Shown here piece by piece: positions 7,206 through 57,523 of a stretch of DNA of 64,000 bases. The notes beneath the pieces were generated by a model. The model saw only the letters and a list, made by a program, of their open reading frames with translations, was not told where the DNA came from and ran no database searches. The first letter of the stretch is position 1. The number at the start of each line of letters is the position of its first letter. The stretch covers positions 19,221 to 83,220 of the IMG/VR virus record IMGVR_UViG_3300037586_005524; one strand, written 5' to 3'. The DNA comes from a virus. Both the position numbers and the translations under genes were made by a program.

Positions 7206-10200
7206 TTAACAGAGTGCGTCTGTCCCTAGCACATCATAAGGGTCCCAAATCTTAGTGTCTAGACCATGAGTTACTGCAATTTGGCGGTTCCAGTTGCCTT
7301 CCATGAAGGCCACATCGAGATCGTCGATATCGCCCCCGGCAGCCACGTACTTCTCCCCGATCTGTGCGATCTCGGCTGGCGACAGGCCACTCTCGGTTAT
7401 TAAAGTGCCGGCGGGCGCTGTTAGCAGACCTGTTATATGTAATTCCACACCTCCACGGTTTCGGTTTGGGAGCGGCTTGCCGTCGAACCATTCACCGCCG
7501 GCGTCTTCAGCATTGCGATCAACCCACTGAATAGTTACAATATCCTGTAAATTATTTTGAGTTATGAACTCCTCGATGCTTTTCTTTATTGACCCGGCGA
7601 GATAGTTGAGTTCTCCACAACTACCATGGTCAACTGAAAATGCCCAGCCGCTGCCCGCGCTGGTGGTGTTTTCGCCGTAAACCCAGGAACTCCCCATATC
7701 TTTGACTGCAATCTTTGTAGATGTACTTCCATGCACGTTTGAGTCAGGATCATCTTTTTTCCATTTAATATAACCAAGGGTTTTATCACAAGTTGCCTCG
7801 TAAAAATGTTTTGGCCCATCTGGCTGGCCTACTACAAATGACAGAGTATTTCCGTCCAGGAAGTTCGGGCGGAAATACTCTCGTGTTTGAGCGCTCGGGT
7901 GATGCCAGTTTCCTTTACAGTTTGTACCCTCGTAATCTTCGTTAGTGTACGGGAACTTAATAACCCATGCCACCACAGGGCTGTCCTTAGTAATTTCTTC
8001 AAGCTTTTTCTGAATTTCTAGTTTTTTATCTCCTTTTTCAAATATAGAAACCTCTTCGCCGAGGAATGTTACCCTACTAAGCACTGGTTCCCACGTATCA
8101 CAGGCCTCATCGATACACCACTGGAAGTTCGACAAGCTTGGCAAATATGACGGTCCGGGGATTGTCTGCTGGCCGCCGGCGCTCAACACATCATTATAGA
8201 AGCCCTCAAGTATAAGAATTTGTTTTCTTGCTAATTCAAAGGTGGCCTTATTGTCGCATAAATCAACCAAGGTGTCTGAGACAGGGAAGGGCGAAGAATT
8301 GACACTTTCACAATTAAAATATAAAATATCTAAAAATCCCTGGCTTGAGCCTGGCAGAATCATGCTGTCTGCCACCCAAGCATTATTTATATAATAATCT
8401 TCGTTTTTTGTTAAATCGCTTATTACTCTTTTATATTTCTCAATATAATCAAATGCATGTCCTTCGACTTCTATGAGCGTATCATAATATTCTCTTAAAG
8501 TAGAAAATATTACTTCTAAGTTCATATCTGATGTCGCTTCTCCGGCTTTTTCTGCAGCTATCAGAGTATCAAATAACGCTGTGTCTGAAAACTTTCTATA
8601 TTGGTAGGCCCAATCGAACGACGCCCCGGGGTTGTCCCGAGGGAAAGCAGTTGAGTTAGAATTCCTCGCCTTATATTTTTGGCGGAGAATCCAATTGCGG
8701 TCATCTTCCATTATATTATAAGATTTCATCAACATGTCAAACATTTTTTCATCCGCCGTATATTCTTCTTTAGAAATTGTTGGATCTTCATCGACTGCGC
8801 TGTCGCATGCTTTAACCTCGGCGGCTTTCAATTGGTCAGGTGCTTTATTCCCGAACCAAATACCGCTCATTGTGTCGCCTAAATACTTTTCTAACATGCA
8901 CATAGTAAATCCTGCAGGGGTCCATGGGGTCATGAAAAATGGATTACATTTTTTCCATCCTGGATCAGTGGCTTGAACCATACCTTTCATAATACCAAGC
9001 GGAGTCATGGCAAAAATTTGAGAATAGCTTGGTGGGCTCCCAAGCATTAAAGTTTGAAATTTGTTCCACCAGCTATCCTCTCCTGTGTCTTCTGTTTGAC
9101 TGGTTTGTTCTTGACTGGCGGCTTCGGCGCCTCCTTTCAATGGATCCGCCGCTTGTGTATTAGAATAGAATAGAGATCTTAACATTCCTTTTGTTTCAGG
9201 AAACATGCCACCTTTTAATTCTGTTTCAGTGTCATAAACAGGAAGGCCGTTGCTGTCTTTATTGCCCGTGTCATATTCAGCCTGTGTTGTTTTCGTATAT
9301 TCATCTAGTTCGAAAGTCTGCATAAGAACATATAATGAAATCAATGTTTTATAATTATCAATCGGAAATATTCTTCCAAAAAGTTTTTCAAAATCACTTG
9401 TTTCTGTCATTAAACCAAGAAGCTTGTTAAGAGGGAATTCATCTTCAATTGAATCTTGATAAGAAAAATATCCCAAAGGCACTGCTTTTGTGTCCTGGGC
9501 CAACTTCACGAATCCGTCTGCAATAGTTTTTGCATCTTGGTCTGATTTTCCTTGTTCCTTCGCCTGGCTTTCATAAAAACTATGCAGTGCGCCTGTTTCT
9601 GCAAAATTAAGACCACCAACAGGGAGTTCAACCTCCATTAATGGTATTTCAATTATGGGCGGTGATATGTCGGCGCCTTCTTTTAAAGTTGTTAAAGCGC
9701 TTTCATACTCAACGAACATATATGTTCCAGTGTCAAGCTCTGCTTTTCTAAGCTTTTCATATAAAATATAAGCTTTTTTATTCAACAAATTTGGGCCTTC
9801 AATGGGCCCATTTATACTTGTATTAAAGGGCAGTAAAAGTTTATCAAGGTCGATCTTTACAGTCTTGTTAGTGTCGTCTGAGTTAAGTTTCCTTTTTACA
9901 GGTTCTTTTTCCAAACCCAGATAGATGGTATCGCCGGTGGAGGGATCGATCTGGATCGCCGGCGGGCCAACGCCGGAATATACAGGGGCATAATCATATC
10001 TAAGTGGCAGGACATAAACCAATCTTAAGCCATACATCCATGGATCAAAATAATTTGTATGTGGCTCGCTAGCTTGGACAGAATTTTTATATTTTGCTAC
10101 ACCAAAACTATCGGCCGTCATTGCTTCCCGCCATTGGTTTATATTAATATAAGCACCTGGCTTTTCATCAAGATTGTCAGGAGTGTGCCAAATATTTCCA

Positions 10201-13200
10201 AATTCAAGAGGGAGGTCATTGTGAACAGAAGGGTCGAGTTCAAAAGCCTTAGAATTCATAACATCATCATATTCGGACTGGGCCCTGGTCTTGACGTGGG
10301 CGGACCAGTGGTCTTTGACGCACTGGGCATCGCATGCGGTGCCGATGGTATACATTCCATACCATTTTTTATATTCGTCGTATACCAACGCCATGGCGGG
10401 AGTGAGCTGCTCTTTGAGGTTGTTGTCGGGGTAGTTGGGGTGGGCCGGCGTCTCAATCTCGCCTGGTGACATGCCGGCATAAGGGAACGCGAGCCAGCCC
10501 ATGATTGTGGTAAGTTTGCTCAGGGCAATTGCTTTTTTTTCATCAAGACTTGTTGGTGTTATTTTTATTATGGGATCTTCTATCTTTGTGTGTTGGTGCG
10601 CACGGATATAAGGTTGCAATATAAAACCGCCATTTGGGCCTATTTTTGAAATAGCAGAGAGAGTAGATGCAACGGTATCTGTACCTAGGTATTCAATGTC
10701 GACGTAGCGATTTGTGCCGGCGTCTCCGTGGCCGGTGAAGAAGGCGTTGATTATAGAGAGGGGCGCCGACATTCCCCCGAAAGCGGCATCAAACTCCAAC
10801 CACTCGCCCCCGTACCACGTGTCGGTAATGTATGCCTTGGCATTGGTGCGGTACCTGTTCATGAAATGTGAGTATAATCTTGGTTTGGTTAGGAAATGAG
10901 GATTTGGAGGTTGCCAGGCGTCGGAATCTTTATTCGTGTTATAATTTGGATCTATTTCGGCTATCTGCGGCATTAAATTAAAAATATTATCGTTGGGATC
11001 TGGGGATTGAACGTCCCCAACAAAGAAATCGTCAGTATTGTCCGACCCGCCAAAAAAGCTTTTCTCTTGACCCTCCCTGTATCCATAATCTCTATCCAGG
11101 TGGCGCCAAAGAAAAGAAGACAAAAAAGAATGTTTCCAACTTTTTATATCTATATCTAATCTAGCTTCAAACTCTTTTTCCATAAAATCGCTAACTGAGA
11201 TTATTTGTTCTTTGAGCAAATATTTTATACCACTTAAACTATAAGGATTGCGATCATATTCATATGGTTCCTCAGTTAGCGGATCTAATAATTTATATCC
11301 TCGTTTAGTTGCTTCCTTTATTTTTGCCCTTAATATCTTGTTGGCATAATAAACAACATGTGATTGGAACTTTGGCTCAAAATCGGCGCCATCTTTAGGA
11401 GCTATTACTTTTGTTGCCGGTTCATCGATAAATACATTTCTACTAAAGGGCCATGGCGTGCCACCAATTGGATTACTTATACGCTGTGGCCCAGCTTTTT
11501 CGTTAGGTGTCTGAAAATTTTCTTTTTCATCTCCAGTTGTGGTCTTGAACGTTTTTTGATAATCTAACATAGCCAGTTCATGTACCATATTAGAAACAAT
11601 AAGATTTATAATTGTTTCTGATTTGAGCACATCTTTTACTTTGAACATGGTAGAAACAGGCAAAAGACGGAGAAAAGTTTCAACAGTATATAAACGAGCT
11701 AATATATAAATTATACCTTCTGCTATTGAGCGCGAAAGATTGGGAGTGTCATTATCTATATCTGGTTCTTCTTCGCACTCAAGGGCCTCATTTCTTTCGC
11801 GAATATTTTGTTTTAGTTCTTCTATTTTTAAAAGAGAAACCTGTTTTATATCACACAGATCATCGGCGGGGAATATTTCTCTAGGAAAAAGGCCGGCAAA
11901 AAACTTTCTAAACATTTCTTTACCATCAGGATGAAAGGTTGGAGATCTCCGAAATGCATCAAGCAAATGATTTCCTAAATCTCGTGTTATAATATTAAAC
12001 ATTTTTTCTAAGCTTTTCTCCGTATCTTGCCCAAAATACATCCCGGGATAGAACTTTTTATTTAATACATTAAAAAATTCTTGTTCTAGCGGAGAATGGA
12101 ACCAATTATCTGAAGCGAGGGCTGCTTCGTCGATGCCAGACTGTTTGGCCTGCTCTGTTGGGCTCATCGCCCACCAGCCGCGTTTTATTTTTCCTTCTTT
12201 TATTTTTGCAGCGTTTTCAGTATATAAATATAAATATTTTCTTATTTGAGCTTCAAGATTATCAAACCATGGCGCGCCATTGTGTAAAATATTATAAAAA
12301 AAGAACCGATCTTTACCTACCCAATAGTCAGTTTCAATTATTTGTTTTCCGGGGTCAGCAACAGAAAGATAATATTCTAGCTTATCGTCAGTCGCGTACA
12401 CGGCGAGAGGGTTGGATGGATCGCTCCAGAGGAATCTTCGCTTTGGACTTTTTAATATAAAATTACTAAGGAGGTTATCAATGCTATAACCCGGGAGCCA
12501 TTGGAAAGGGGCGTTAAATGATTCTCGTATTATTGGTAAAAGGGCGCGGTCTGGTATATTTCCTGGGGTTTGCTTTTGGTTTTGCCAGGGTGTGTCGGAT
12601 TCGAAATTCGTGAGGCCGTCAAGTGGCGGAAAGCCAGATGGGTAGCCTGTTAGAAGTTTATTATGAAATATAAATATTTCACTTTTAAACCCAGGCTCAA
12701 TTGTTCTTAAATTTTGATCAATTAATGTATTGTTTATCAGATTCGTTGGATAGATGTCATGTGGAATTCTATCCGGGTTGCCACAATCATCTGCAGCTAG
12801 GGGCGACTCTGGATTGTACGCTTTGTCAAGTAAATTAAGAAGCTTTTCTATCCTGTCAAGTTTTGCTCTGTTGCAAACATTTTCAACTTGTTCTTTTGTT
12901 GCATGGCCATCCAATAACTCTCCGCAAAGTTCATGCACGTATGGTGGGATTTCACATTCACTATAAAGCTGCGTTGGTAATTTTTTTTGTATCTCTTCAC
13001 AATATGCAGGATCAATAACGCCTTCAAAACTCTTATGAAAAAATTCCTTAATCTTTTTATAAGAAAGAGTTTCATCATTCCCTTTTAATTGAGAATAGAG
13101 ATTTTCAAATGATGTCATTAATAAATTTTTAATAATCTTTGATACAGTGAGTGTCGCCTCGCCATTGTTAAAAAGTGCACAAAGTTCTGCTTGCGAAAGC

Positions 13201-16200
13201 ATGCTTTCCAAGGCTTCCATTAGGCCTAAAATATTATTAGCTAGATCAGGCTCTGTTAAGTCAACTCCTTGGGCGCTAAGTTTTTTGGCCAAATTTCTTG
13301 CGGCGGCGCCCGGTGTTAAATCCATTAAATCATCAAAACTTGCTTTTCCAGGAATGCGATTTTTATTTCCCGGGTCTTTCGGGTCAAGGCCATCCCAGAG
13401 AAAATTCTTGAGGGCTTGGCACGCTAGAATAACTTCATTTAAGGTTTTCTTAACAAAATATAATATTGCTGCGTGAGCTATTTGTGCACCAATGGCGCGC
13501 ATCACTTCATCTGCCTGTGAGCCAAATGTGGTGGTCTTGTCTCTCGGGCGTTCTACTGCTTCTTCTTCTTTGTATTTCCGCTGCCGTTTTGCTTCATCTT
13601 CTTTTTTGGCCACTTCTTCTGGGGTTGGATTAACTGATTTTCTTATGGGATCGACGATTAAAGATTGAATTAAGTCAATAGCATTCGCACTATAACTTAT
13701 TATATTTCTGCAAAGTTCCTTTTTAAAATTGGGATCAGTCATTTTCATTATTGATTTAGATATATCGCTCGCAGCTTCTGCCACTTCAGCATTAGTTACG
13801 CCCCCATATGATGAGGGCATATATGTTCCAGCGCTTCCTTCTACATAATTTGCATATGACGAATCCATTTCAACTTGACGTCTTCGGCCGATGGTATTGG
13901 CGATTTGTGTGTCTATTGCTTTTACATCTTTCGAAAGATTCTTCTCTTCTGGTGAGCCAGGTGTCGCGTTTTTAAGCTCGGATTCAACAACAACCTTTCT
14001 AGCAGTCAGTTCTTCAATTTGTGTGTTATATCTGTCTCTTTCGGACATAAGTTGTTGAAATTCTGCGTTTTGTACTCTTTTTTGTGCTTTGATTGTCTTA
14101 GCAGCATTGGCTACTTCTGTTGCAACTTGTGCAGTAGATTCTGCAATTAATTTGGTCAAAGTGCCGTCTTTGCTTATATTATCAAAAAAGTTGTCAGCAC
14201 CCATTTCTTTCATTGCATATCTACAAGCTATTTCAAGCCACTCGTTTGGATCTAGCCAACATTTTATTGCTTGTTTTACTAAAGTTTTAACGTCTGCCTG
14301 ACTTAAGACTCTCGTGAAAATCGAACTTACGGGGTTGGGCCCATCTTCGATCCGTAATCGATCTCTTGTTTCAGGCAAAGTTCGCCAAAAATCATCGGCC
14401 ACGTTGCGTACCCACTTTCGACTATAATGGGTATAATTTTCAGCCCAAGTTGGATCATTGGTCATTGCATTCGCGCTCATTCTTGATTTGTGTGATGCAA
14501 GTGGTCCATGATTGTTAGTTATATACTGTTCCTGGGCCTTTTTGGTTCCTTCAGGATGATCATGAAGAAACTTATGAGTATGCTGAATAGGTCCAATATA
14601 TTTTTCAATAAAACTAAGAAGATCCAACTTTGTCCTGGCTGTTTCTGGGTCTATGTTAAAATCTACTTTAGGGTTGCGGCTGGCGCGGTCATCAACTACA
14701 TCAAAACTATTTCCTTTGTGCATTGTAGATATAAAATATAATGTTCTTTCTGTGTCGGTCACAGTTCTGCGTAGTGTGCGCCGGAAGTCTTGAAAAGCGG
14801 GCTCTAAAGAAGCATTGAAGCCTCCTCCAAGGATTCTTGAATGTTCAACTTCACCCAGTCTTTGTATGCCAATTAAGCCAGGGGCCGTGCTATCTTCATT
14901 AAACTTAGTTTTCGGAGCGTATTCCCGTACATATGCAATATCCCAATCGGGTGCTGGGCCGTGAATTTTTTCTAGTTTTTTGTTTGATTTAGTAATGCCA
15001 ATTTCAATTAAGTTCTTATCTTTGCCCCATGTTTCTGGATATTTTGCCCACTCTTCTTGTGCTTCTGAGGTTGGCCTATCCCCGGAGAAAAATCCACTGG
15101 GGACTCCTTGGCCGCCGCCGGCGGTGGCATCTTTTAATAAAGTTTTTAGTGCTTCTCTGAAGTCCTCTATCTGGTCTGCTTCGTTATCAAGCGATATCGT
15201 GTCCCAGCTGCCAAGTGCTGTTCCTTTTGGCGCCGGAGTTGGGCCAATTTCAAGTGGCGGTATAGACTCCTTTTGGGCTTGCTGATATACCTTTAATGTT
15301 TTTGCTATTTCATCAAGATCGTCATCGATTGATCCAACTTTCATAATTATTGCCCTATCAGGCGCTAAAACTTCTAGATTGGCACCAGGATCCGCGTCCT
15401 GAAGAAGGAGCAGTGTGGCTGGTTTACTTATCCCAATAAGAAAAGTTAAGCCTGGGTTGAACATACTTTGGTTGTCTTCTATGTCCTCTATTTCGGCATT
15501 AATAGAAGCCAATTCAGCTTCTTGGAGACTATCTGGTGGCGGTGGCTGCGGTATTGCGTCTCTTTGTGCTTTAAGTTCTGCAAGTTTTTGTTTGTCTGCA
15601 GGCGCGTGAGCATCCTTTCTAGTTTCAATTGTATAGCCCCCAAATTCAACATAACCAGCTTTGATAAACTCTTCAACTTTGGGCCCAATCAAATTATAAT
15701 AATCTTCTCGGTTTGTTTGTCCTGGGCCAGTAATGGCGCCTTTGTGGGCTATATTAGCCTTGACAAATCTTCTACCCAACAATTCCAACGCAAGAGGAAG
15801 TGAAGCTTTAACCATATCGAACCAGGTTTCATACCCAATTTCAACACTGCCTTGGGCGAATTGTGCGATTGGATGTAAATTTTTATATGATCTATAATCA
15901 AATGTATAATAGTACCAATCACTATCTTCTAATAATTCAACAAATCCAAATGGCTTATCTTCTAACCCATCAGCCCCAACTGGTTCGACATCATGGATAT
16001 CAATAGCATGCTGTGTTGCTAAGTGTATAAAACTTTCTGGTACTAGTGCTTTGGTGCGTATATTTGAGTCGACTGTGACACTCTGCGGTGCTGGCGAGGC
16101 CTGCGTCATGGCGTAGAGACGGTCGCCGCCGATGATCGGTCCGCGCTTGGCGTCGTCTTCGTCCGCGGTGTAGAGATCCACCATTGCGTCGAATGGGTTG

Positions 16201-16328
16201 GTGGCGCCCTTTTTACCAAAGGTTTCCGCCGCGCCCTCACCAGTCCATAAATCATCGGTAGACCACTTTTCTTTAATTAGATCAATAACTTCTTGATATC
16301 TTTTGCTGCCGAAATAGCCTTCTTTCAC
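7206..16328 (-). CDS. Giant (3040 aa) putative virion protein of unknown function
   Basis: Uninterrupted 9.1-kb ORF, GTG start with GGAG RBS, between the gp5-like and gp25-like genes; coiled-coil segments; no recognisable catalytic motif. Confidence 0.7.
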   Translation of the reverse strand: MKEGYFGSKRYQEVIDLIKEKWSTDDLWTGEGAAETFGKKGATNPFDAMVDLYTADEDDAKRGPIIGGDRLYAMTQASPAPQSVTVDSNIRTKALVPESFIHLATQHAIDIHDVEPVGADGLEDKPFGFVELLEDSDWYYYTFDYRSYKNLHPIAQFAQGSVEIGYETWFDMVKASLPLALELLGRRFVKANIAHKGAITGPGQTNREDYYNLIGPKVEEFIKAGYVEFGGYTIETRKDAHAPADKQKLAELKAQRDAIPQPPPPDSLQEAELASINAEIEDIEDNQSMFNPGLTFLIGISKPATLLLLQDADPGANLEVLAPDRAIIMKVGSIDDDLDEIAKTLKVYQQAQKESIPPLEIGPTPAPKGTALGSWDTISLDNEADQIEDFREALKTLLKDATAGGGQGVPSGFFSGDRPTSEAQEEWAKYPETWGKDKNLIEIGITKSNKKLEKIHGPAPDWDIAYVREYAPKTKFNEDSTAPGLIGIQRLGEVEHSRILGGGFNASLEPAFQDFRRTLRRTVTDTERTLYFISTMHKGNSFDVVDDRASRNPKVDFNIDPETARTKLDLLSFIEKYIGPIQHTHKFLHDHPEGTKKAQEQYITNNHGPLASHKSRMSANAMTNDPTWAENYTHYSRKWVRNVADDFWRTLPETRDRLRIEDGPNPVSSIFTRVLSQADVKTLVKQAIKCWLDPNEWLEIACRYAMKEMGADNFFDNISKDGTLTKLIAESTAQVATEVANAAKTIKAQKRVQNAEFQQLMSERDRYNTQIEELTARKVVVESELKNATPGSPEEKNLSKDVKAIDTQIANTIGRRRQVEMDSSYANYVEGSAGTYMPSSYGGVTNAEVAEAASDISKSIMKMTDPNFKKELCRNIISYSANAIDLIQSLIVDPIRKSVNPTPEEVAKKEDEAKRQRKYKEEEAVERPRDKTTTFGSQADEVMRAIGAQIAHAAILYFVKKTLNEVILACQALKNFLWDGLDPKDPGNKNRIPGKASFDDLMDLTPGAAARNLAKKLSAQGVDLTEPDLANNILGLMEALESMLSQAELCALFNNGEATLTVSKIIKNLLMTSFENLYSQLKGNDETLSYKKIKEFFHKSFEGVIDPAYCEEIQKKLPTQLYSECEIPPYVHELCGELLDGHATKEQVENVCNRAKLDRIEKLLNLLDKAYNPESPLAADDCGNPDRIPHDIYPTNLINNTLIDQNLRTIEPGFKSEIFIFHNKLLTGYPSGFPPLDGLTNFESDTPWQNQKQTPGNIPDRALLPIIRESFNAPFQWLPGYSIDNLLSNFILKSPKRRFLWSDPSNPLAVYATDDKLEYYLSVADPGKQIIETDYWVGKDRFFFYNILHNGAPWFDNLEAQIRKYLYLYTENAAKIKEGKIKRGWWAMSPTEQAKQSGIDEAALASDNWFHSPLEQEFFNVLNKKFYPGMYFGQDTEKSLEKMFNIITRDLGNHLLDAFRRSPTFHPDGKEMFRKFFAGLFPREIFPADDLCDIKQVSLLKIEELKQNIRERNEALECEEEPDIDNDTPNLSRSIAEGIIYILARLYTVETFLRLLPVSTMFKVKDVLKSETIINLIVSNMVHELAMLDYQKTFKTTTGDEKENFQTPNEKAGPQRISNPIGGTPWPFSRNVFIDEPATKVIAPKDGADFEPKFQSHVVYYANKILRAKIKEATKRGYKLLDPLTEEPYEYDRNPYSLSGIKYLLKEQIISVSDFMEKEFEARLDIDIKSWKHSFLSSFLWRHLDRDYGYREGQEKSFFGGSDNTDDFFVGDVQSPDPNDNIFNLMPQIAEIDPNYNTNKDSDAWQPPNPHFLTKPRLYSHFMNRYRTNAKAYITDTWYGGEWLEFDAAFGGMSAPLSIINAFFTGHGDAGTNRYVDIEYLGTDTVASTLSAISKIGPNGGFILQPYIRAHQHTKIEDPIIKITPTSLDEKKAIALSKLTTIMGWLAFPYAGMSPGEIETPAHPNYPDNNLKEQLTPAMALVYDEYKKWYGMYTIGTACDAQCVKDHWSAHVKTRAQSEYDDVMNSKAFELDPSVHNDLPLEFGNIWHTPDNLDEKPGAYININQWREAMTADSFGVAKYKNSVQASEPHTNYFDPWMYGLRLVYVLPLRYDYAPVYSGVGPPAIQIDPSTGDTIYLGLEKEPVKRKLNSDDTNKTVKIDLDKLLLPFNTSINGPIEGPNLLNKKAYILYEKLRKAELDTGTYMFVEYESALTTLKEGADISPPIIEIPLMEVELPVGGLNFAETGALHSFYESQAKEQGKSDQDAKTIADGFVKLAQDTKAVPLGYFSYQDSIEDEFPLNKLLGLMTETSDFEKLFGRIFPIDNYKTLISLYVLMQTFELDEYTKTTQAEYDTGNKDSNGLPVYDTETELKGGMFPETKGMLRSLFYSNTQAADPLKGGAEAASQEQTSQTEDTGEDSWWNKFQTLMLGSPPSYSQIFAMTPLGIMKGMVQATDPGWKKCNPFFMTPWTPAGFTMCMLEKYLGDTMSGIWFGNKAPDQLKAAEVKACDSAVDEDPTISKEEYTADEKMFDMLMKSYNIMEDDRNWILRQKYKARNSNSTAFPRDNPGASFDWAYQYRKFSDTALFDTLIAAEKAGEATSDMNLEVIFSTLREYYDTLIEVEGHAFDYIEKYKRVISDLTKNEDYYINNAWVADSMILPGSSQGFLDILYFNCESVNSSPFPVSDTLVDLCDNKATFELARKQILILEGFYNDVLSAGGQQTIPGPSYLPSLSNFQWCIDEACDTWEPVLSRVTFLGEEVSIFEKGDKKLEIQKKLEEITKDSPVVAWVIKFPYTNEDYEGTNCKGNWHHPSAQTREYFRPNFLDGNTLSFVVGQPDGPKHFYEATCDKTLGYIKWKKDDPDSNVHGSTSTKIAVKDMGSSWVYGENTTSAGSGWAFSVDHGSCGELNYLAGSIKKSIEEFITQNNLQDIVTIQWVDRNAEDAGGEWFDGKPLPNRNRGGVELHITGLLTAPAGTLITESGLSPAEIAQIGEKYVAAGGDIDDLDVAFMEGNWNRQIAVTHGLDTKIWDPYDVLGTDALC

Positions 16329-17415: not shown

Positions 17416-19419
17416 TTATGTTTTCTCCATATAAGATGTTGCTTTAAACCACATTTTTTGTCCTTTTTCTAAATATTTATTTAAGGAAACGTCACCAAAA
17501 ACTGGTATTTTTGTTGGGCCATGACCTTTGCCCTTGTGAAGCTTTGGTATTGTTTCGGCTGCCGCGGCTAAAGTAATATACCAAGATTCTAAATGGCCAA
17601 AACCGAGTTGGCGCGTAAGAAGATAGTGTTCTAAAAATGGGCTGCTATCTGTTCCCCATCTAGAATAAGAAACTATTCCAGATATTGCAGAATTACCTTT
17701 ACTTTTTAAACCGTTTTTCCAAAATATTTCTGGTTTATTATATTTTTCGATTGGAAGAGGCCCTATTTTCCCCCATGGGAATCCGGGTTCAATATTGTGC
17801 CTATTCCCCCTTTTTTTAATAAAATGGCTGGTTGGATAGATATCCACGCCGCCTCCGGCGGCAGGAAAATTCCAAGCTAAAATATGTTTATGCCATGTAG
17901 GCTTCTTATACCCCCAGGAATATGTTGATCTCGGAGGCGTGTTGACAATACTTGACACCAATTCATATAAAGCCGCAGCCTGGTCAAGTGTCGGCAAAAA
18001 ATAATGCCCAGTAGGAGACCAAGTTATTCGACCTGACCAAAAATTATTATTTGAAATATCTAAAACTGGGGTATTCTGATTTGCATTTGGTCCTGTTCGC
18101 AGCCCGGGCGTTCCAAAAGGACCTAGTATAAATGGGAAAGAATTATCTGGTAATCTTTTGTCTGTAATCCAATTATGTAATTTATTTTTAAAATTAGAAA
18201 ATTTTTGACTTTTATTAATTTCTTTTATTGGCTTATGCGAAGCCCAAGTAGAGCTAGGTCCAAAAAAATGACGTCCATCAAATGGCGAAGAAACCATACA
18301 ACCAACAGAGGTACTAGAAAAAGTATTCTTTTCATTTATAACAAGGCCATATGGTACATTAACTCGAATTGTACAAAGTCTATGTTTATGGCCGTTCTTA
18401 TAATTTTCAAGACCAACATGAGAACCATCTAAAATAGAATTCATAGAAATTGTATAATGCATGGTAGGATTTGTGTGTATTTTTTTATATGTTTCTATAT
18501 GATTTCGACCAGATTCTCTTATTATAAAAAGTTTTGTTTCTTTTCTTTGTTTGATTTCTAAATCTGGAGGTAAGAAAAATAATTTATTTCCTGGTCTGTG
18601 TTGAATATATTTAAAATCAGAAAGCTCATCAGCCATGTCTTCGACATTTTTAATTATTGAAGATCCTGGAAGGATATCGTAATTTTTCATATTAGGATAA
18701 TCAAGCTCTTTATCAATATAAATTTCTCTGGTGAGGTGTGCCAAACTAGAAACCTCTAGCGTTTCAGCTGTTATTTCTCCTGGGGTAAAATACACATATT
18801 TATCTTCAAAAGGGCTCCCTTTATTTATATTTCCCTTTGCATTCTTATCATAGGCGTCTTGTGGCGAATCTATTGTAGGAAGTGGTATGAGGATTGGTCT
18901 AGTCTTATGAACTGGGCCTATATAAATTGGGTCAGTCCAAGTAGATGTATCCTGCGGGTCTGGCTTGTTTAGCCAGTCAACATAAACTAGCTCTCCCAGA
19001 TGAGGAACGTGTAAACATTCTTCTTTTGCAACAAATCTTGGAAGTGCGATAACGGCGTCTACCTCACCAGGCTCAAGATCCTCTCCTCCAGAATCTCCTG
19101 TTACATGATTAATTAAATATGAGGTGGGTTTTGGAGTGAGCGTAATACCATCAACATACCCATAAACTTTTACTTTTGGTATCATTGGAGTTTGTGTTAT
19201 CCTTCTCATCCGTGATTCGTCAGAAGTAGGATAGTCCCACGTGCTTGTACTGTCTAAACCAAATACGACAGCATAATATGGACCTGCTTGGGCAAGATTA
19301 ATATTAGTTTTATAGTCTTTTAATATTAACTTTACAAGTTCTCTGAAGGGATTGAAATTGCTTACATCAAATTCTCGGCTGGTTGGAAGATTGGTTGTTA
19401 TATTATCAACCATTTCCAT
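17416..19419 (-). CDS. Putative baseplate hub protein with degenerate amidase-like C-terminal domain
   Basis: N-terminal OB-fold-like VPHLGELVYV motif; C-terminal half follows Amidase_2 spacing (FIIRES / MHYTI / SVGCM / PTLDQAAALYELV) without the canonical His ligands. Confidence 0.45.
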   Translation of the reverse strand: MEMVDNITTNLPTSREFDVSNFNPFRELVKLILKDYKTNINLAQAGPYYAVVFGLDSTSTWDYPTSDESRMRRITQTPMIPKVKVYGYVDGITLTPKPTSYLINHVTGDSGGEDLEPGEVDAVIALPRFVAKEECLHVPHLGELVYVDWLNKPDPQDTSTWTDPIYIGPVHKTRPILIPLPTIDSPQDAYDKNAKGNINKGSPFEDKYVYFTPGEITAETLEVSSLAHLTREIYIDKELDYPNMKNYDILPGSSIIKNVEDMADELSDFKYIQHRPGNKLFFLPPDLEIKQRKETKLFIIRESGRNHIETYKKIHTNPTMHYTISMNSILDGSHVGLENYKNGHKHRLCTIRVNVPYGLVINEKNTFSSTSVGCMVSSPFDGRHFFGPSSTWASHKPIKEINKSQKFSNFKNKLHNWITDKRLPDNSFPFILGPFGTPGLRTGPNANQNTPVLDISNNNFWSGRITWSPTGHYFLPTLDQAAALYELVSSIVNTPPRSTYSWGYKKPTWHKHILAWNFPAAGGGVDIYPTSHFIKKRGNRHNIEPGFPWGKIGPLPIEKYNKPEIFWKNGLKSKGNSAISGIVSYSRWGTDSSPFLEHYLLTRQLGFGHLESWYITLAAAAETIPKLHKGKGHGPTKIPVFGDVSLNKYLEKGQKMWFKATSYMEKT

Positions 19420-55401: not shown

Positions 55402-56466
55402 TTACATTCCACCTAATAAAGTTAAGGCAATCAGACCAGGAAGTTCGCTTCTAACATATACACCAGAAAATAAAGTATCTGCTCTTCCACCTACATATGA
55501 AAAAGCGGCTTCTAATCGATTACTAACTGCTGGATCGTCAGCCATTTCTGGGGTGGCAATTAAAAGAAGTGCTCCTGTTTTTGATTTGGTTGCTGGTGTT
55601 GGGCAAGGCGAAGATTTTAAACAGCCCTGAAATATCAAAGAACCTAAATCTGTTTTTGAAGGATCCCTTACAACAGTGCTGCCTAATAATATTCTACCTG
55701 GGGTGTTAAGACATCTTTCTAAATCTTTCGAATCAAAAGCTTGGATTGGCGAAGGTTCGTTCGCCAATTTTAGAATTTGTGTTAATAGTTTTGCAAAATT
55801 TTTATTTGCTGCAGGGTACATATTTAACATTCCAACTTTGCCACGTAATAATTGTAATTGTTTTTCATTATCAATTACAATACGTGTATGTTTATTTATG
55901 TCTCTCAATAACATTTCACAATTAGATTTAATTGTTGGATTTAAAAGTTCTTGTGACGATGGAGTACTAACAATATAGACAACTTTTCCACTAGCACCGC
56001 TAGAAGATAAATAACGACTAATGGCTTTATGTAAAACATGACTAGCACTTCCTGTTCCCCCGCCTGCCCCTGCACATACAAATACCCAATCGACTTTACC
56101 AACGCGAGTTCGAAGAGCGTCTTCAACTAATGCACTATTATTTGCTAAAATTTCTTTTCCCAATTTAACATCTTTGCCAACACCATCTGCTCCTGGGATT
56201 AAAATAAAATTCTCTGGATTGACTCCAGATGGTTGATCTTTTTCTGTTGTGTTCACAAGGAGCGTCTTGTTAAACCCAAGATCCATAAATGCTTTGGCTA
56301 ATTTACCGCCGCCGCCGCCAATACCAATAAAAGCACAATTAATTGCACTTGCAGCAGTATTTTCTTCTAGCATTTTTTCATCTATAGATGGCTCATCATC
56401 ATAAGCCTCTACGAAATCAAAATCATTTGGCGGGCTTTCTGGTAAGTCCCAATTTTCTTCACTCAT
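55402..56466 (-). CDS. Tubulin/FtsZ-superfamily GTPase (PhuZ/TubZ/CetZ-like)
   Basis: GIGGGGGK (T1), VNT...D (T2), GADGVGKD...G (T3), GAGGGTGS signature (T4), IDNE, FDSKDL (T7-like). Confidence 0.92.
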   Translation of the reverse strand: MSEENWDLPESPPNDFDFVEAYDDEPSIDEKMLEENTAASAINCAFIGIGGGGGKLAKAFMDLGFNKTLLVNTTEKDQPSGVNPENFILIPGADGVGKDVKLGKEILANNSALVEDALRTRVGKVDWVFVCAGAGGGTGSASHVLHKAISRYLSSSGASGKVVYIVSTPSSQELLNPTIKSNCEMLLRDINKHTRIVIDNEKQLQLLRGKVGMLNMYPAANKNFAKLLTQILKLANEPSPIQAFDSKDLERCLNTPGRILLGSTVVRDPSKTDLGSLIFQGCLKSSPCPTPATKSKTGALLLIATPEMADDPAVSNRLEAAFSYVGGRADTLFSGVYVRSELPGLIALTLLGGM

Positions 56467-56486
56467 AATTACAGTCTCCCTGTAAA

Positions 56487-56494
56487 TAAATAGT
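56487..56494 (-). promoter_or_regulatory. Candidate phage late-promoter motif ACTATTTA (upstream of the tubulin gene)
   Basis: Same 8-mer sits 12-26 nt upstream of several start codons (also 6741, 52519, 58407; variant at 63904). Confidence 0.55.
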
Positions 56495-56514
56495 TAACAT
56501 TTGTGTTATTTCTT

Positions 56515-56895
56515 TGGTGGAGGCGCGGGGAATCGAACCCCGGTCCAAAATAGATTAATTATTTTGTCATTCACAAGAATAGGCACATTCACCGCCGAAG
56601 TGCCAGCCACCTGATAAATCAGGGAATCCATTTACCAACTTAAGGTGTTGGCTACCAAATTTATATAGTTTCCTATATAATAAAAATCCGCTTGCGCGTA
56701 CCACCAGCTTTTTTTAAAACTGAAAACAATTAGTATTTGTTAAGAAAGTCACTAACAACTTCCGATTATGCAGCTAAGGCGTAATCAAATTCAACGTTAT
56801 CGTTGGCATTTATAAAGTTTAAGTATTTTTACTGTGATACTTACACAGTCTTGCACAAAACAATCTCCTTACTCTGTCGAAACCATTTCGCCCCC
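56515..56895 (-). ncRNA. ssrA: tmRNA (transfer-messenger RNA), one-piece, tag ANDNVEFDYALAA
   Basis: 5' GGGGGCGAAATGGTTTCGAC; 3' GGACCGGGGTTCGATTCCCCGCGCCTCCACCA with T-arm, encoded CCA and G3:U alanine identity pair; tag ORF GCC AAC GAT AAC GTT GAA TTT GAT TAC GCC TTA GCT GCA TAA at 56766-56807; 381 nt. Confidence 0.97.
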
Positions 56896-56901
56896 ATACT
56901 T

Positions 56902-57078
56902 TTAAAGAACAAATTCTACGAAGGGTGTTAATTCTTCACACTAACAACGCTAGACTCCTTATAACTGGAAACGGTCTTTCTTTCAACCGTTATTTTACAT
57001 CCCCTTCAAGAGAGTCATTGAAGGTGTTCGTAGTACATTCAAATTCTAGTTTAGCACCTTCGTAGTCTAGAACTTTAA
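56902..57078 (-). ncRNA. Candidate structured RNA / tmRNA leader of unknown family
   Basis: Nested complementarity: 57051-57065 with 56916-56931; 57045-57049 with 56950-56954; hairpins 57003-57024 and 56970-56991; terminal TTAAAG/CTTTAA. Confidence 0.5.
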
Positions 57079-57133
57079 CCTCATTTTTATTAACAACTAT
57101 AATGAACCACACTGGGCTCAAAATATATATATA

Positions 57134-57162
57134 ACTATAATCAATTATATACTAATTGTCAA
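57134..57162 (-). promoter_or_regulatory. Sigma70-type promoter TTGACA-N17-TATAGT upstream of the leader RNA and tmRNA
   Basis: -35 at 57157-57162, -10 at 57134-57139, 17-nt spacer. Confidence 0.8.
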
Positions 57163-57523
57163 GCTTTTTAATATCATTTTCGAAAAAAGTTTCTGTATCA
57201 TACTTTTTAATTAAATTATTAAAGTTCTGCCTCCTCATTCCTAAAAATCTAGCTGCTTCTCTTTTAGTTTTACACGCTGAGAGGGCATATTTTAATACAG
57301 CATCTTGTACAATTTCTTTCATTGATTTCCAGATTGGTAGCCCATATGGCTTTCCACCAAAAACCTTCGAAGCCAATTCTAATTTAAGTCCGATCACTTC
57401 TTCTAATGACAGTCGATTTAACATGATTTCAAATTCTTCAGTTGATTTGTTTTCTTCACGAAGCTTTTTTATCAAACTGTACCGTTCATTTTTTCCTTTA
57501 ATTTTCTTTTTGTTCCAGGTCAT
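57152..57523 (-). CDS. Fis-like helix-turn-helix DNA-binding protein
   Basis: C-terminal VLKYALSACKTKREAARFLGMRRQNF..LIKKY resembles the Fis/HTH_8 motif. Confidence 0.75.
   Translation of the reverse strand: MTWNKKKIKGKNERYSLIKKLREENKSTEEFEIMLNRLSLEEVIGLKLELASKVFGGKPYGLPIWKSMKEIVQDAVLKYALSACKTKREAARFLGMRRQNFNNLIKKYDTETFFENDIKKLDN

Follow-up and report, generated by a model that had tools for sequence, protein, structure and literature searches.

In phage T4, the structured small RNAs rnaC and rnaD (species 1 and 2) are co-transcribed with a tRNA cluster and released by host tRNA-processing enzymes; to our knowledge, their function has been unknown for decades. In bacteria and phages, well-supported pseudoknots with invariant junctions belong mostly to riboswitches, ribozymes and the cores of RNA-protein machines, and pistol ribozymes are common in environmental and phage sequence. 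Marine myophages of the Melnitz type are reported to carry a glutamine riboswitch (glnA motif) in the 3' domain of a two-piece ssrA (PMC9004378). Here we describe a pseudoknotted RNA element immediately upstream of a one-piece transfer-messenger RNA (tmRNA) gene in a 64,000-nucleotide stretch of viral DNA (positions 19,221 to 83,220 of IMG/VR virus record IMGVR_UViG_3300037586_005524), which we call the window. A sequence-only reading had flagged positions 56902-57078, minus strand, which lie between a sigma-70-type promoter and the tmRNA, as a structured RNA without annotation. Energy calculations and covariation in relatives bear this out: the stretch does encode a structured RNA, which belongs to a family of 34 distinct sequences from marine viral and metagenome contigs that share a fold and occur in several genomic arrangements, 17 of them linked to a tmRNA.

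Fold of the RNA

The flagged 177-nt stretch folds at -43.9 kcal/mol, which is better than all of 200 dinucleotide shuffles (z = -2.8). Its structured core of ~150 nt (56916-57065, minus strand, as are all window positions in this section) consists of a closing stem, P1, the hairpins P2, P3 and P4, and a pseudoknot; family members measure ~110-180 nt. In a MAFFT alignment of 15 sequences from the tmRNA-linked group, many of which are closely related to one another, the structure is 93% paired and 11 pairs are changed on both sides, a result that none of 500 shuffles matches. When the partners are slid by 1-3 columns, pairing falls to 42-58%. The pairings drawn from sequence alone are all present in the window, and the two structural checks proposed with them, folding against shuffles and covariation in relatives upstream of tmRNA genes, both came out in favor of a structured RNA, with co-variation in P1, P3 and P4. 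P4 and the pseudoknot had been missed, and about half of the anatomy had been seen correctly.

P1 joins the 5' strand CUACGAAGG (57057-57065) to the 3' strand CCUUCGUAG (56916-56924). Within the tmRNA-linked group, compensatory changes are seen at two of its pairs. Among all 34 members there are 23 different 5' strands, including unrelated ones such as GAAAAGCGG, AAAAAGGCAG, ACGGAACAA, GAGAAGUCGA and CCCGUGAGGGG, and the helix is contiguous over 9-14 bp in every member except L041, where the run stops after 3 bp. The boundaries of P1 are those of the best helix chosen, backed by its constant position beside P4 and the U-tract and by shuffling controls, in which at most 8 of 300 shuffles attained the observed helix score in 10 of 15 representatives. 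Since the cross-form covariance-model alignment misaligns P1 of the free-standing forms, P1 was counted by script from the sequence ends. The long stem of the sequence-only reading survives in its outer 9 bp, which are P1, but not in its inner part GCUAA/UUAAC, as UUAAC belongs to P4. A further outer helix, UUAAAG/CUUUAA, is no better than chance (mean z 0.06 against shuffles in 15 relatives), and CUUUAA is kept in L010, where no partner for it exists. The proposed CUAGA/UCUAG helix is present and 80% paired, with UUAGA facing UCUAA by eye in L038, but the MAFFT alignment reveals no compensatory change in it, and two of its bases compete with the pseudoknot; it is a possible pairing within the tmRNA-linked group.

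The junction between P1 and P2 (57025-57056) contains the conserved GUGCUAAACUAGAAU and an A-rich run ahead of P2, and is kept within the tmRNA-linked group. P2 itself (CCUUCAA-UGACUCUC-UUGAAGG, 57003-57024) had been recognized as a hairpin from sequence alone and proves nearly invariant: five of its seven pairs do not vary among 31 aligned members, and the closing pair co-varies between C-G, G-C and U-A. The stem is divergent in L296 and in the GC-rich form of the family. P3 (56967-57002) is a variable hairpin with the base GGA/UCC and the inner stem AACGGU/ACCGUU (56991-56970), the latter being the second hairpin that had been recognized. Length and sequence of P3 vary and it is missing in L037; its base and inner pairs co-vary. 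Downstream follow the conserved junction CAGUUAUAA and the pseudoknot partner GGAGUC (together 56953-56966), and then P4 (UGUUAGU-GUGAAGA-AUUAACA, 56926-56946), which is 100% paired in 15 sequences with three co-varying pairs. The purine-rich loop of P4 is GARGA-like in the other forms, and it is a speculation of ours that it may dock on the sequence-conserved inner stem of P2. G-U pairs are numerous (nine at one P1 position, 31 in the pseudoknot) and assign the RNA to the strand of the tmRNA.

The pseudoknot is formed by six bases of the 8-10-nt P2 loop (GACUCU, 57016-57011), which pair with GGAGUC (56958-56953) downstream of P3. The pairing GACUCU:GGAGUC is found in 28 of the 34 members, the window included. 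It co-varies through five variant pairings, which come from copies retrieved with patterns that leave the partner free: GAUUCU:GGAAUC in L087, GAUUCU:AGAAUC in L296, GAUACU:GGUAUC in L184, GAUGCU:GGCAUC in L132, and GCCGCG or GCCGUG with CGCGGC in the GC-rich form (L195 and L112). P2 and the pseudoknot are 97% paired on the model-based alignment, and none of 500 shuffles attains their score. The changes in the partner abolish a Shine-Dalgarno-like AAAGGAG, and the loop changes with them, which speaks for conservation of the pairing and not of ribosome binding.

Collection of relatives

A search with the tubulin/FtsZ-family protein encoded downstream of the tmRNA returned 34 related viral loci, most of which have a tmRNA immediately upstream of the tubulin gene. 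In the 330 nt preceding each tmRNA of these loci, the element is present in three cases only (L002, L008 and L011). More copies were retrieved from viral contigs and marine metagenomes with the conserved hairpin as an exact pattern, and a covariance model made from the tmRNA-linked copies recovered all of these, together with divergent copies in whole viral records. The looser patterns GGCGCGAYRAGRACAGC and GAAGRAYYAACACCCTT gave mainly chance matches, yet yielded the informative variants L132, L184, L112 and L195. Matches discarded as chance were L043-45, L053, L056/64, L058, L079/85, L281-283, L285-287, L088 and window 15225-15370. The last of these was a false match of the covariance model within a single 3040-aa open reading frame (ORF; window 7206-16328, minus strand) that has no Pfam match.

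Outside viral contigs and marine metagenomes, the element was not encountered in the searches that we made. In 185,579 species-representative prokaryote genomes, an exact 20-mer of the core has three matches only, all of them coding-like and without a downstream pseudoknot partner. Among cultured phages, no real match was returned by blastn with the region or with the GC-rich form, or by tblastn with the tubulin and with a 220-aa neighbor protein described below.

Genomic contexts of the family

The 17 tmRNA-linked sequences share one order, which runs from a promoter through a 5' hairpin of variable sequence, the element and a U-rich linker of 15-22 nt to the tmRNA. In 14 of them the promoter ends 51-93 nt before P1; no promoter was found in L038 and L055, and that of L057 has ATGACA. 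One member of the group, L002 (identical with L040), has an extra, very stable hairpin of ~14 bp, starting with AAGGAGUGUGGUAC, between element and tmRNA (L002:1334-1394, plus strand).

The 17 copies outside this group have no adjoining tRNA or tmRNA gene according to ARAGORN, and fall into three forms. Eleven sequences carry a conserved 3' module, CUGGUnAUGUGGCGCGACGAGGACAGCGGC, and have a P1 that consists of an A-tract and a G/C-rich stem leading into U-tracts. Four are preceded by a TG-extended -10 box that ends ~12 nt before P1; U6-U7 stands immediately behind the stem, and the consensus promoter of the next gene begins 19 nt later (for example in L065). The remaining two make up the GC-rich form, with a larger P3 region and a 3' module as in the eleven-member form. 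Besides the TG-extended -10 form, L077 and L087 also have a promoter-like site, in their case TTGACA-17-TATTAT 50-64 nt upstream (~64 nt before P1 in L087, which has a U-rich tail). Among the copies outside the tmRNA locus, L065 and L087 thus have the features of a free-standing small RNA gene, namely a promoter of their own and a U-rich, terminator-like end, and no conserved ORF was found.

Linkage to the tmRNA varies even among close relatives. In record G002, which comes from a closely related phage (83% identity to the window's tubulin), a free-standing copy lies ~45 kb from the tubulin locus. In record G010 (185 kb, 84% complete), a tmRNA-linked and a free-standing copy lie 153 kb apart and differ in their pseudoknot sequences. 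Conversely, L010 has the same promoter, the tmRNA and the last ~15 nt of the leader without the element, and only ~25 nt separate its -10 box from the tmRNA; in nine further relatives the tmRNA directly follows a helix-turn-helix (HTH) gene, again without the element. ARAGORN detects no tmRNA within 4 kb upstream of the tubulin gene in G002 and in one relative (L006 and L007, tubulin 83% identical), which implies that the tmRNA itself was gained or lost within the group of the window phage. In the more distant tubulin-linked relatives L017 and L019-L033, an Hc1-type histone H1-like gene (PF07432, 36 bits) takes the place of the HTH gene before the tmRNA (L017:3276-3470, plus strand, and the same position in L019-L033).

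The genes beside free-standing copies encode diverse small proteins of no single functional class. A protein of ~220 aa adjoins several of these copies (L065:5744-6412, minus strand; L041:672-1331, plus strand; L284:6534-7190, minus strand; and L112, L195, L060 and L119), after the RNA in two forms and before it in the GC-rich form. It has 16 homologues only and belongs to no Pfam or PHROG family. Its AlphaFold model, a confident one (pLDDT 89.6), combines a helical N-terminal domain with a small beta-barrel; a comparison with the PDB gave no match at E 0.001 and weak rows to small KOW/Tudor-like beta-barrels. The protein is absent from the 83-kb record of the window phage and provides no functional lead for the window. 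The flanks of the free-standing copies in L036, L037, L065, L078, L087 and L284 also contain arrays of small paralogous genes (50-90 aa) whose products start with M(K/Q/E)(V/I)GDLV.

The locus in the window

The source of the window is an 83-kb IMG/VR viral record, estimated to be 46% complete, with a G+C content of ~33-40%. All features of the locus lie on the minus strand. An HTH protein gene (57152-57523; 123 aa, weak HTH_29 match) is overlapped at its end by a sigma-70-type promoter, TTGACA-17-TATAGT (57134-57162), which matches the consensus at 11 of 12 positions. A stem-loop, P0 (57103-57120), lies just past the predicted transcript start, and candidate hairpins of differing sequence occupy its position in relatives such as L048, L052, L042 and L061. 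The interval of ~240 nt between promoter and tmRNA has no annotated gene. From P1, the U-rich linker AAUUUGUUCUUUAAAAGUAU (56896-56915) leads to the 5' end of the tmRNA; eight of its first 12 nt are U, compared with 2-10 in relatives. The tmRNA (56515-56895) is of the one-piece type and encodes the tag ANDNVEFDYALAA (ARAGORN; Rfam RF00023, 120.7 bits), and the tubulin/FtsZ-family gene (55402-56466) lies downstream of it.

The last ~15 nt before the tmRNA (GUUCUUUAAAA and 2-3 nt more; window 56896-56912, minus strand; L010:3479-3495, plus strand) are kept with or without the element, which suggests a role in processing of the tmRNA precursor rather than in the element.

Known RNA families and expression

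No Rfam family explains the element. A scan of the window at gathering thresholds, a scan of 56300-57400 at E up to 10 and scans of six loci of the other forms returned only the tmRNA and a side effect of a permuted tmRNA model. The latter, RF04321 (the acceptor piece of two-piece tmRNA), scores 51.4 bits at 56766-57011, minus strand, over a gathering score of 47, and we rejected it. The score comes from the 5' half of the true tmRNA (GGGGGCGAAAUGG through the tag frame); upstream, the alignment deletes the T-arm (15 model positions against five bases), contains four non-standard pairs and places the CCA end on CCGUUUCCAGUUA within P3, while a complete one-piece tmRNA with a tRNA-like 3' end follows. 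RF04321 is above threshold here for the wrong reason and could cause mis-annotation of the locus as a two-piece tmRNA.

Other known RNAs were looked for and not found. The comparison with 6S RNA, made earlier on account of size, is not supported, as no 6S family is matched in Rfam at E up to 10 and the fold that the relatives support is branched around a junction and pseudoknotted. With E allowed to reach 10, the glnA and Downstream-peptide models do not match the window region, nor do they match the loci of the other forms. With cmscan, hammerhead, twister, twister-sister, pistol, hatchet and HDV-like ribozymes were not found at E up to 10 or up to 1 in the window region and the loci of the other forms, and a literature search did not find the core sequence. 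Relative to Rfam, this is a new family and not a member or variant of a known one. It may be among the 8,495 unnamed candidates of the IMG/VR structured-RNA catalogue (PMC10690425).

Contigs from four marine metatranscriptome runs cover parts of the tmRNA, some at 100% identity, and one of them extends 20 nt into the leader of a relative; tmRNA of the type found in this phage is thus represented among marine transcripts.

Discussion

Together, our data lead us to lean toward a model in which the element is a modular, stand-alone non-coding RNA that, at this locus, is co-transcribed with the tmRNA and released by RNase P. Element and tmRNA would be made as one precursor from the shared promoter, since the 20-nt gap between them has no room for another. 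RNase P makes the 5' end of tmRNA in established tmRNA maturation, and because of this, its cut would be expected to free the ~230-nt leader (P0 and the element) as a separate stable RNA. The modular distribution suggests that this RNA would act in trans, as a protein- or ligand-binding RNA, and not as a switch specific to the tmRNA. In free-standing copies, P1 and the U-tract behind it would end the transcript; before the tmRNA, the terminator of what was an independent RNA may have become leaky. We favor an independent, trans-acting RNA because the element elsewhere has its own promoter and U-tract, because related phages have the tmRNA without it, and because its neighbors are diverse. Release by tmRNA 5' processing was one of two possibilities raised on the basis of the window alone, and the occurrence of free-standing copies in related phages and of tmRNA genes without the element in close relatives speaks for it.

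Several observations sit less comfortably with this model. P1 followed by a U-rich tract right before the tmRNA also fits a cis-acting attenuator. The tmRNA-linked group has conserved features of its own, namely its P4 sequence and the segment GUGCUAAACUAGA, and these features, together with the coexistence of a linked and a free-standing copy in one genome, fit a specialized, tmRNA-related role. Compact, pseudoknotted folds with invariant junctions are seen more often in riboswitches and ribozymes than in small RNAs that act by base pairing. Moreover, most members were retrieved with a pattern that fixes the sequence of P2, so that the diversity of the family is under-sampled and the apparent invariance of P2 is partly an artefact. 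Finally, no contig of the four metatranscriptomes covers the element, although contigs cannot show absence, ends or levels.

The most serious competitor, to which we assign a clearly smaller but substantial likelihood, is a riboswitch or factor-responsive attenuator, in which folded P1 and the U-rich tract terminate transcription before the tmRNA or the next gene, and an open P1 allows read-through. Most members have 7-10 U in the first 12 nt after P1, and the tmRNA-linked L038, L083 and L051 have U6-U7 directly after it. As the gap of 15-22 nt between P1 and tmRNA is too short for a promoter, transcription of the tmRNA must cross the element, and among the free-standing copies L041, L063, L081, L132 and L184 are separated from a following ORF by 20-30 nt that contain no promoter. 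The compact fold with its pseudoknot and conserved junctions is aptamer-like, and the glutamine riboswitch at the tmRNA of Melnitz-type marine phages (PMC9004378) is a precedent. The U-tract is degenerate, however, in many tmRNA-linked copies (2-5 U in L040, L055 and L288), and it would be unusual for a terminator stem to enclose a multibranch domain longer than 100 nt. The genes downstream of free-standing copies encode diverse small proteins, and the TG-extended -10 copies and several others have a consensus promoter for the next gene right after the U-tract. A promoter of its own ~5 nt before P1, as in the TG-extended copies, is the layout of an RNA gene and not of a leader, and in the GC-rich form the RNA comes after the neighbor gene. 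No conserved anti-terminator was found in the family either.

A more specific version holds that the element is a new aptamer class with P1 itself as terminator stem, which would make the synthesis of tmRNA depend on the condition of the infected host and elsewhere gate neighboring early genes or act as an orphan sensor; we regard this as somewhat less probable again. Co-variation of P1, P3 and P4 around conserved junctions and a conserved P2 loop is what a conserved aptamer would show. The position of the element and its expression platform do not follow suit, as downstream genes are mixed, some with their own promoter, and no conserved alternative helix was found.

That the element is a self-cleaving ribozyme, or an RNA-processing module that trims the tmRNA precursor or its own transcript, seems improbable to us. 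Its size, the pseudoknot between loop and junction, and the invariant junction nucleotides recall small self-cleaving ribozymes of the pistol and twister classes, and it is scattered over phage intergenic regions without a constant neighbor. No Rfam ribozyme matches, on the other hand, even at E up to 10, and we identified no conserved candidate cleavage dinucleotide. The order of helices is unlike that of pistol, with the pseudoknot hairpin inside the closing stem and P3 interposed, and RNase P already explains the 5' end of the tmRNA.

We think it very improbable that the element is a bistable switch, as had been proposed from the window, in which the 5' strand of P1 pairs by turns with the 3' strand of P1 and with CACCUUC at the base of P2 and so controls the tmRNA. 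The GAAGGUG:CACCUUC duplex is indeed strong in the window (-11.5 kcal/mol, as against -14.2 for P1) and reaches -8 to -10 in several tmRNA-linked relatives. It weakens, however, to -4.8 in L038 and L083 and to -1.3 in L289, and to between -0.8 and -5.7 in the free-standing forms, where the remainder of the fold is retained. The duplex gains no support from compensatory changes, and it stems from the CCUUC that is common to the 3' strand of P1 and the 5' strand of P2, not from conservation of its own.

We give hardly any credence to a small protein gene (the 43-codon TTG ORF at 57121-56990 proposed earlier, or a mini-ORF behind AAGGAG) or to a protein-binding palindrome in the DNA, although AAAGGAG resembles a Shine-Dalgarno sequence and P2 is a 7-bp inverted repeat: apart from the window, the ORF is open only in L048, the nearest relative, no frame is common to the 16 tmRNA-linked copies tested, candidate start codons are absent or frame-shifted between members, the Shine-Dalgarno-like bases become GGAAUC, GGUAUC, GGCAUC or CGCGGC, always jointly with the P2 loop, and G-U pairs and long-range compensatory changes are strand-specific signals at the RNA level.

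Comparison with known systems

As pseudoknotted RNAs of this quality mostly turn out to be riboswitches, ribozymes or RNA-protein cores, an uncatalogued one is a candidate for new biochemistry. The RNA is short enough for probing and crystallization, and natural compensatory variants exist. Its contexts are informative as well, being free-standing in some phages, fused before the tmRNA in others, and both in one genome.

The way in which the family was found, by comparison, with strong covariation and in a phage or mobile context, resembles that of GOLLD, ROOL, raiA, HEARO and the IMG/VR candidates (PMC10690425). The element is, however, much smaller than GOLLD and ROOL and has no Rfam match to any of the four named families. 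With pistol ribozymes (RF02679) it shares a hairpin whose loop enters a 6-bp pseudoknot with a downstream junction, as well as a closing helix, additional hairpins and a junction rich in A. It differs from them in being two to three times larger, in the order of its helices, in having no Rfam match and in lacking the known catalytic core nucleotides.

The Melnitz-type riboswitch (PMC9004378) and our element are both compact structured RNAs that are physically linked to the tmRNA gene of a marine phage, with an early-type promoter in front. In our case, the tmRNA is in one piece, the 5' unit is also found without a tmRNA, and the glnA and Downstream-peptide models do not match. If the element gates the tmRNA, it would be the second independent case, after Melnitz, of marine-phage ribosome rescue under control at the RNA level.

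The likeness to rnaC and rnaD of T4 lies in a small structured phage RNA that is made, in our case presumably, in one transcript with a gene of the tRNA type and released from it. The partner here is a tmRNA, and the RNA also occurs free-standing, with its closing stem running into a U-tract. If the element acts in trans, as we favor, it would join the very few stable phage RNAs that are produced along with tRNA-type genes.

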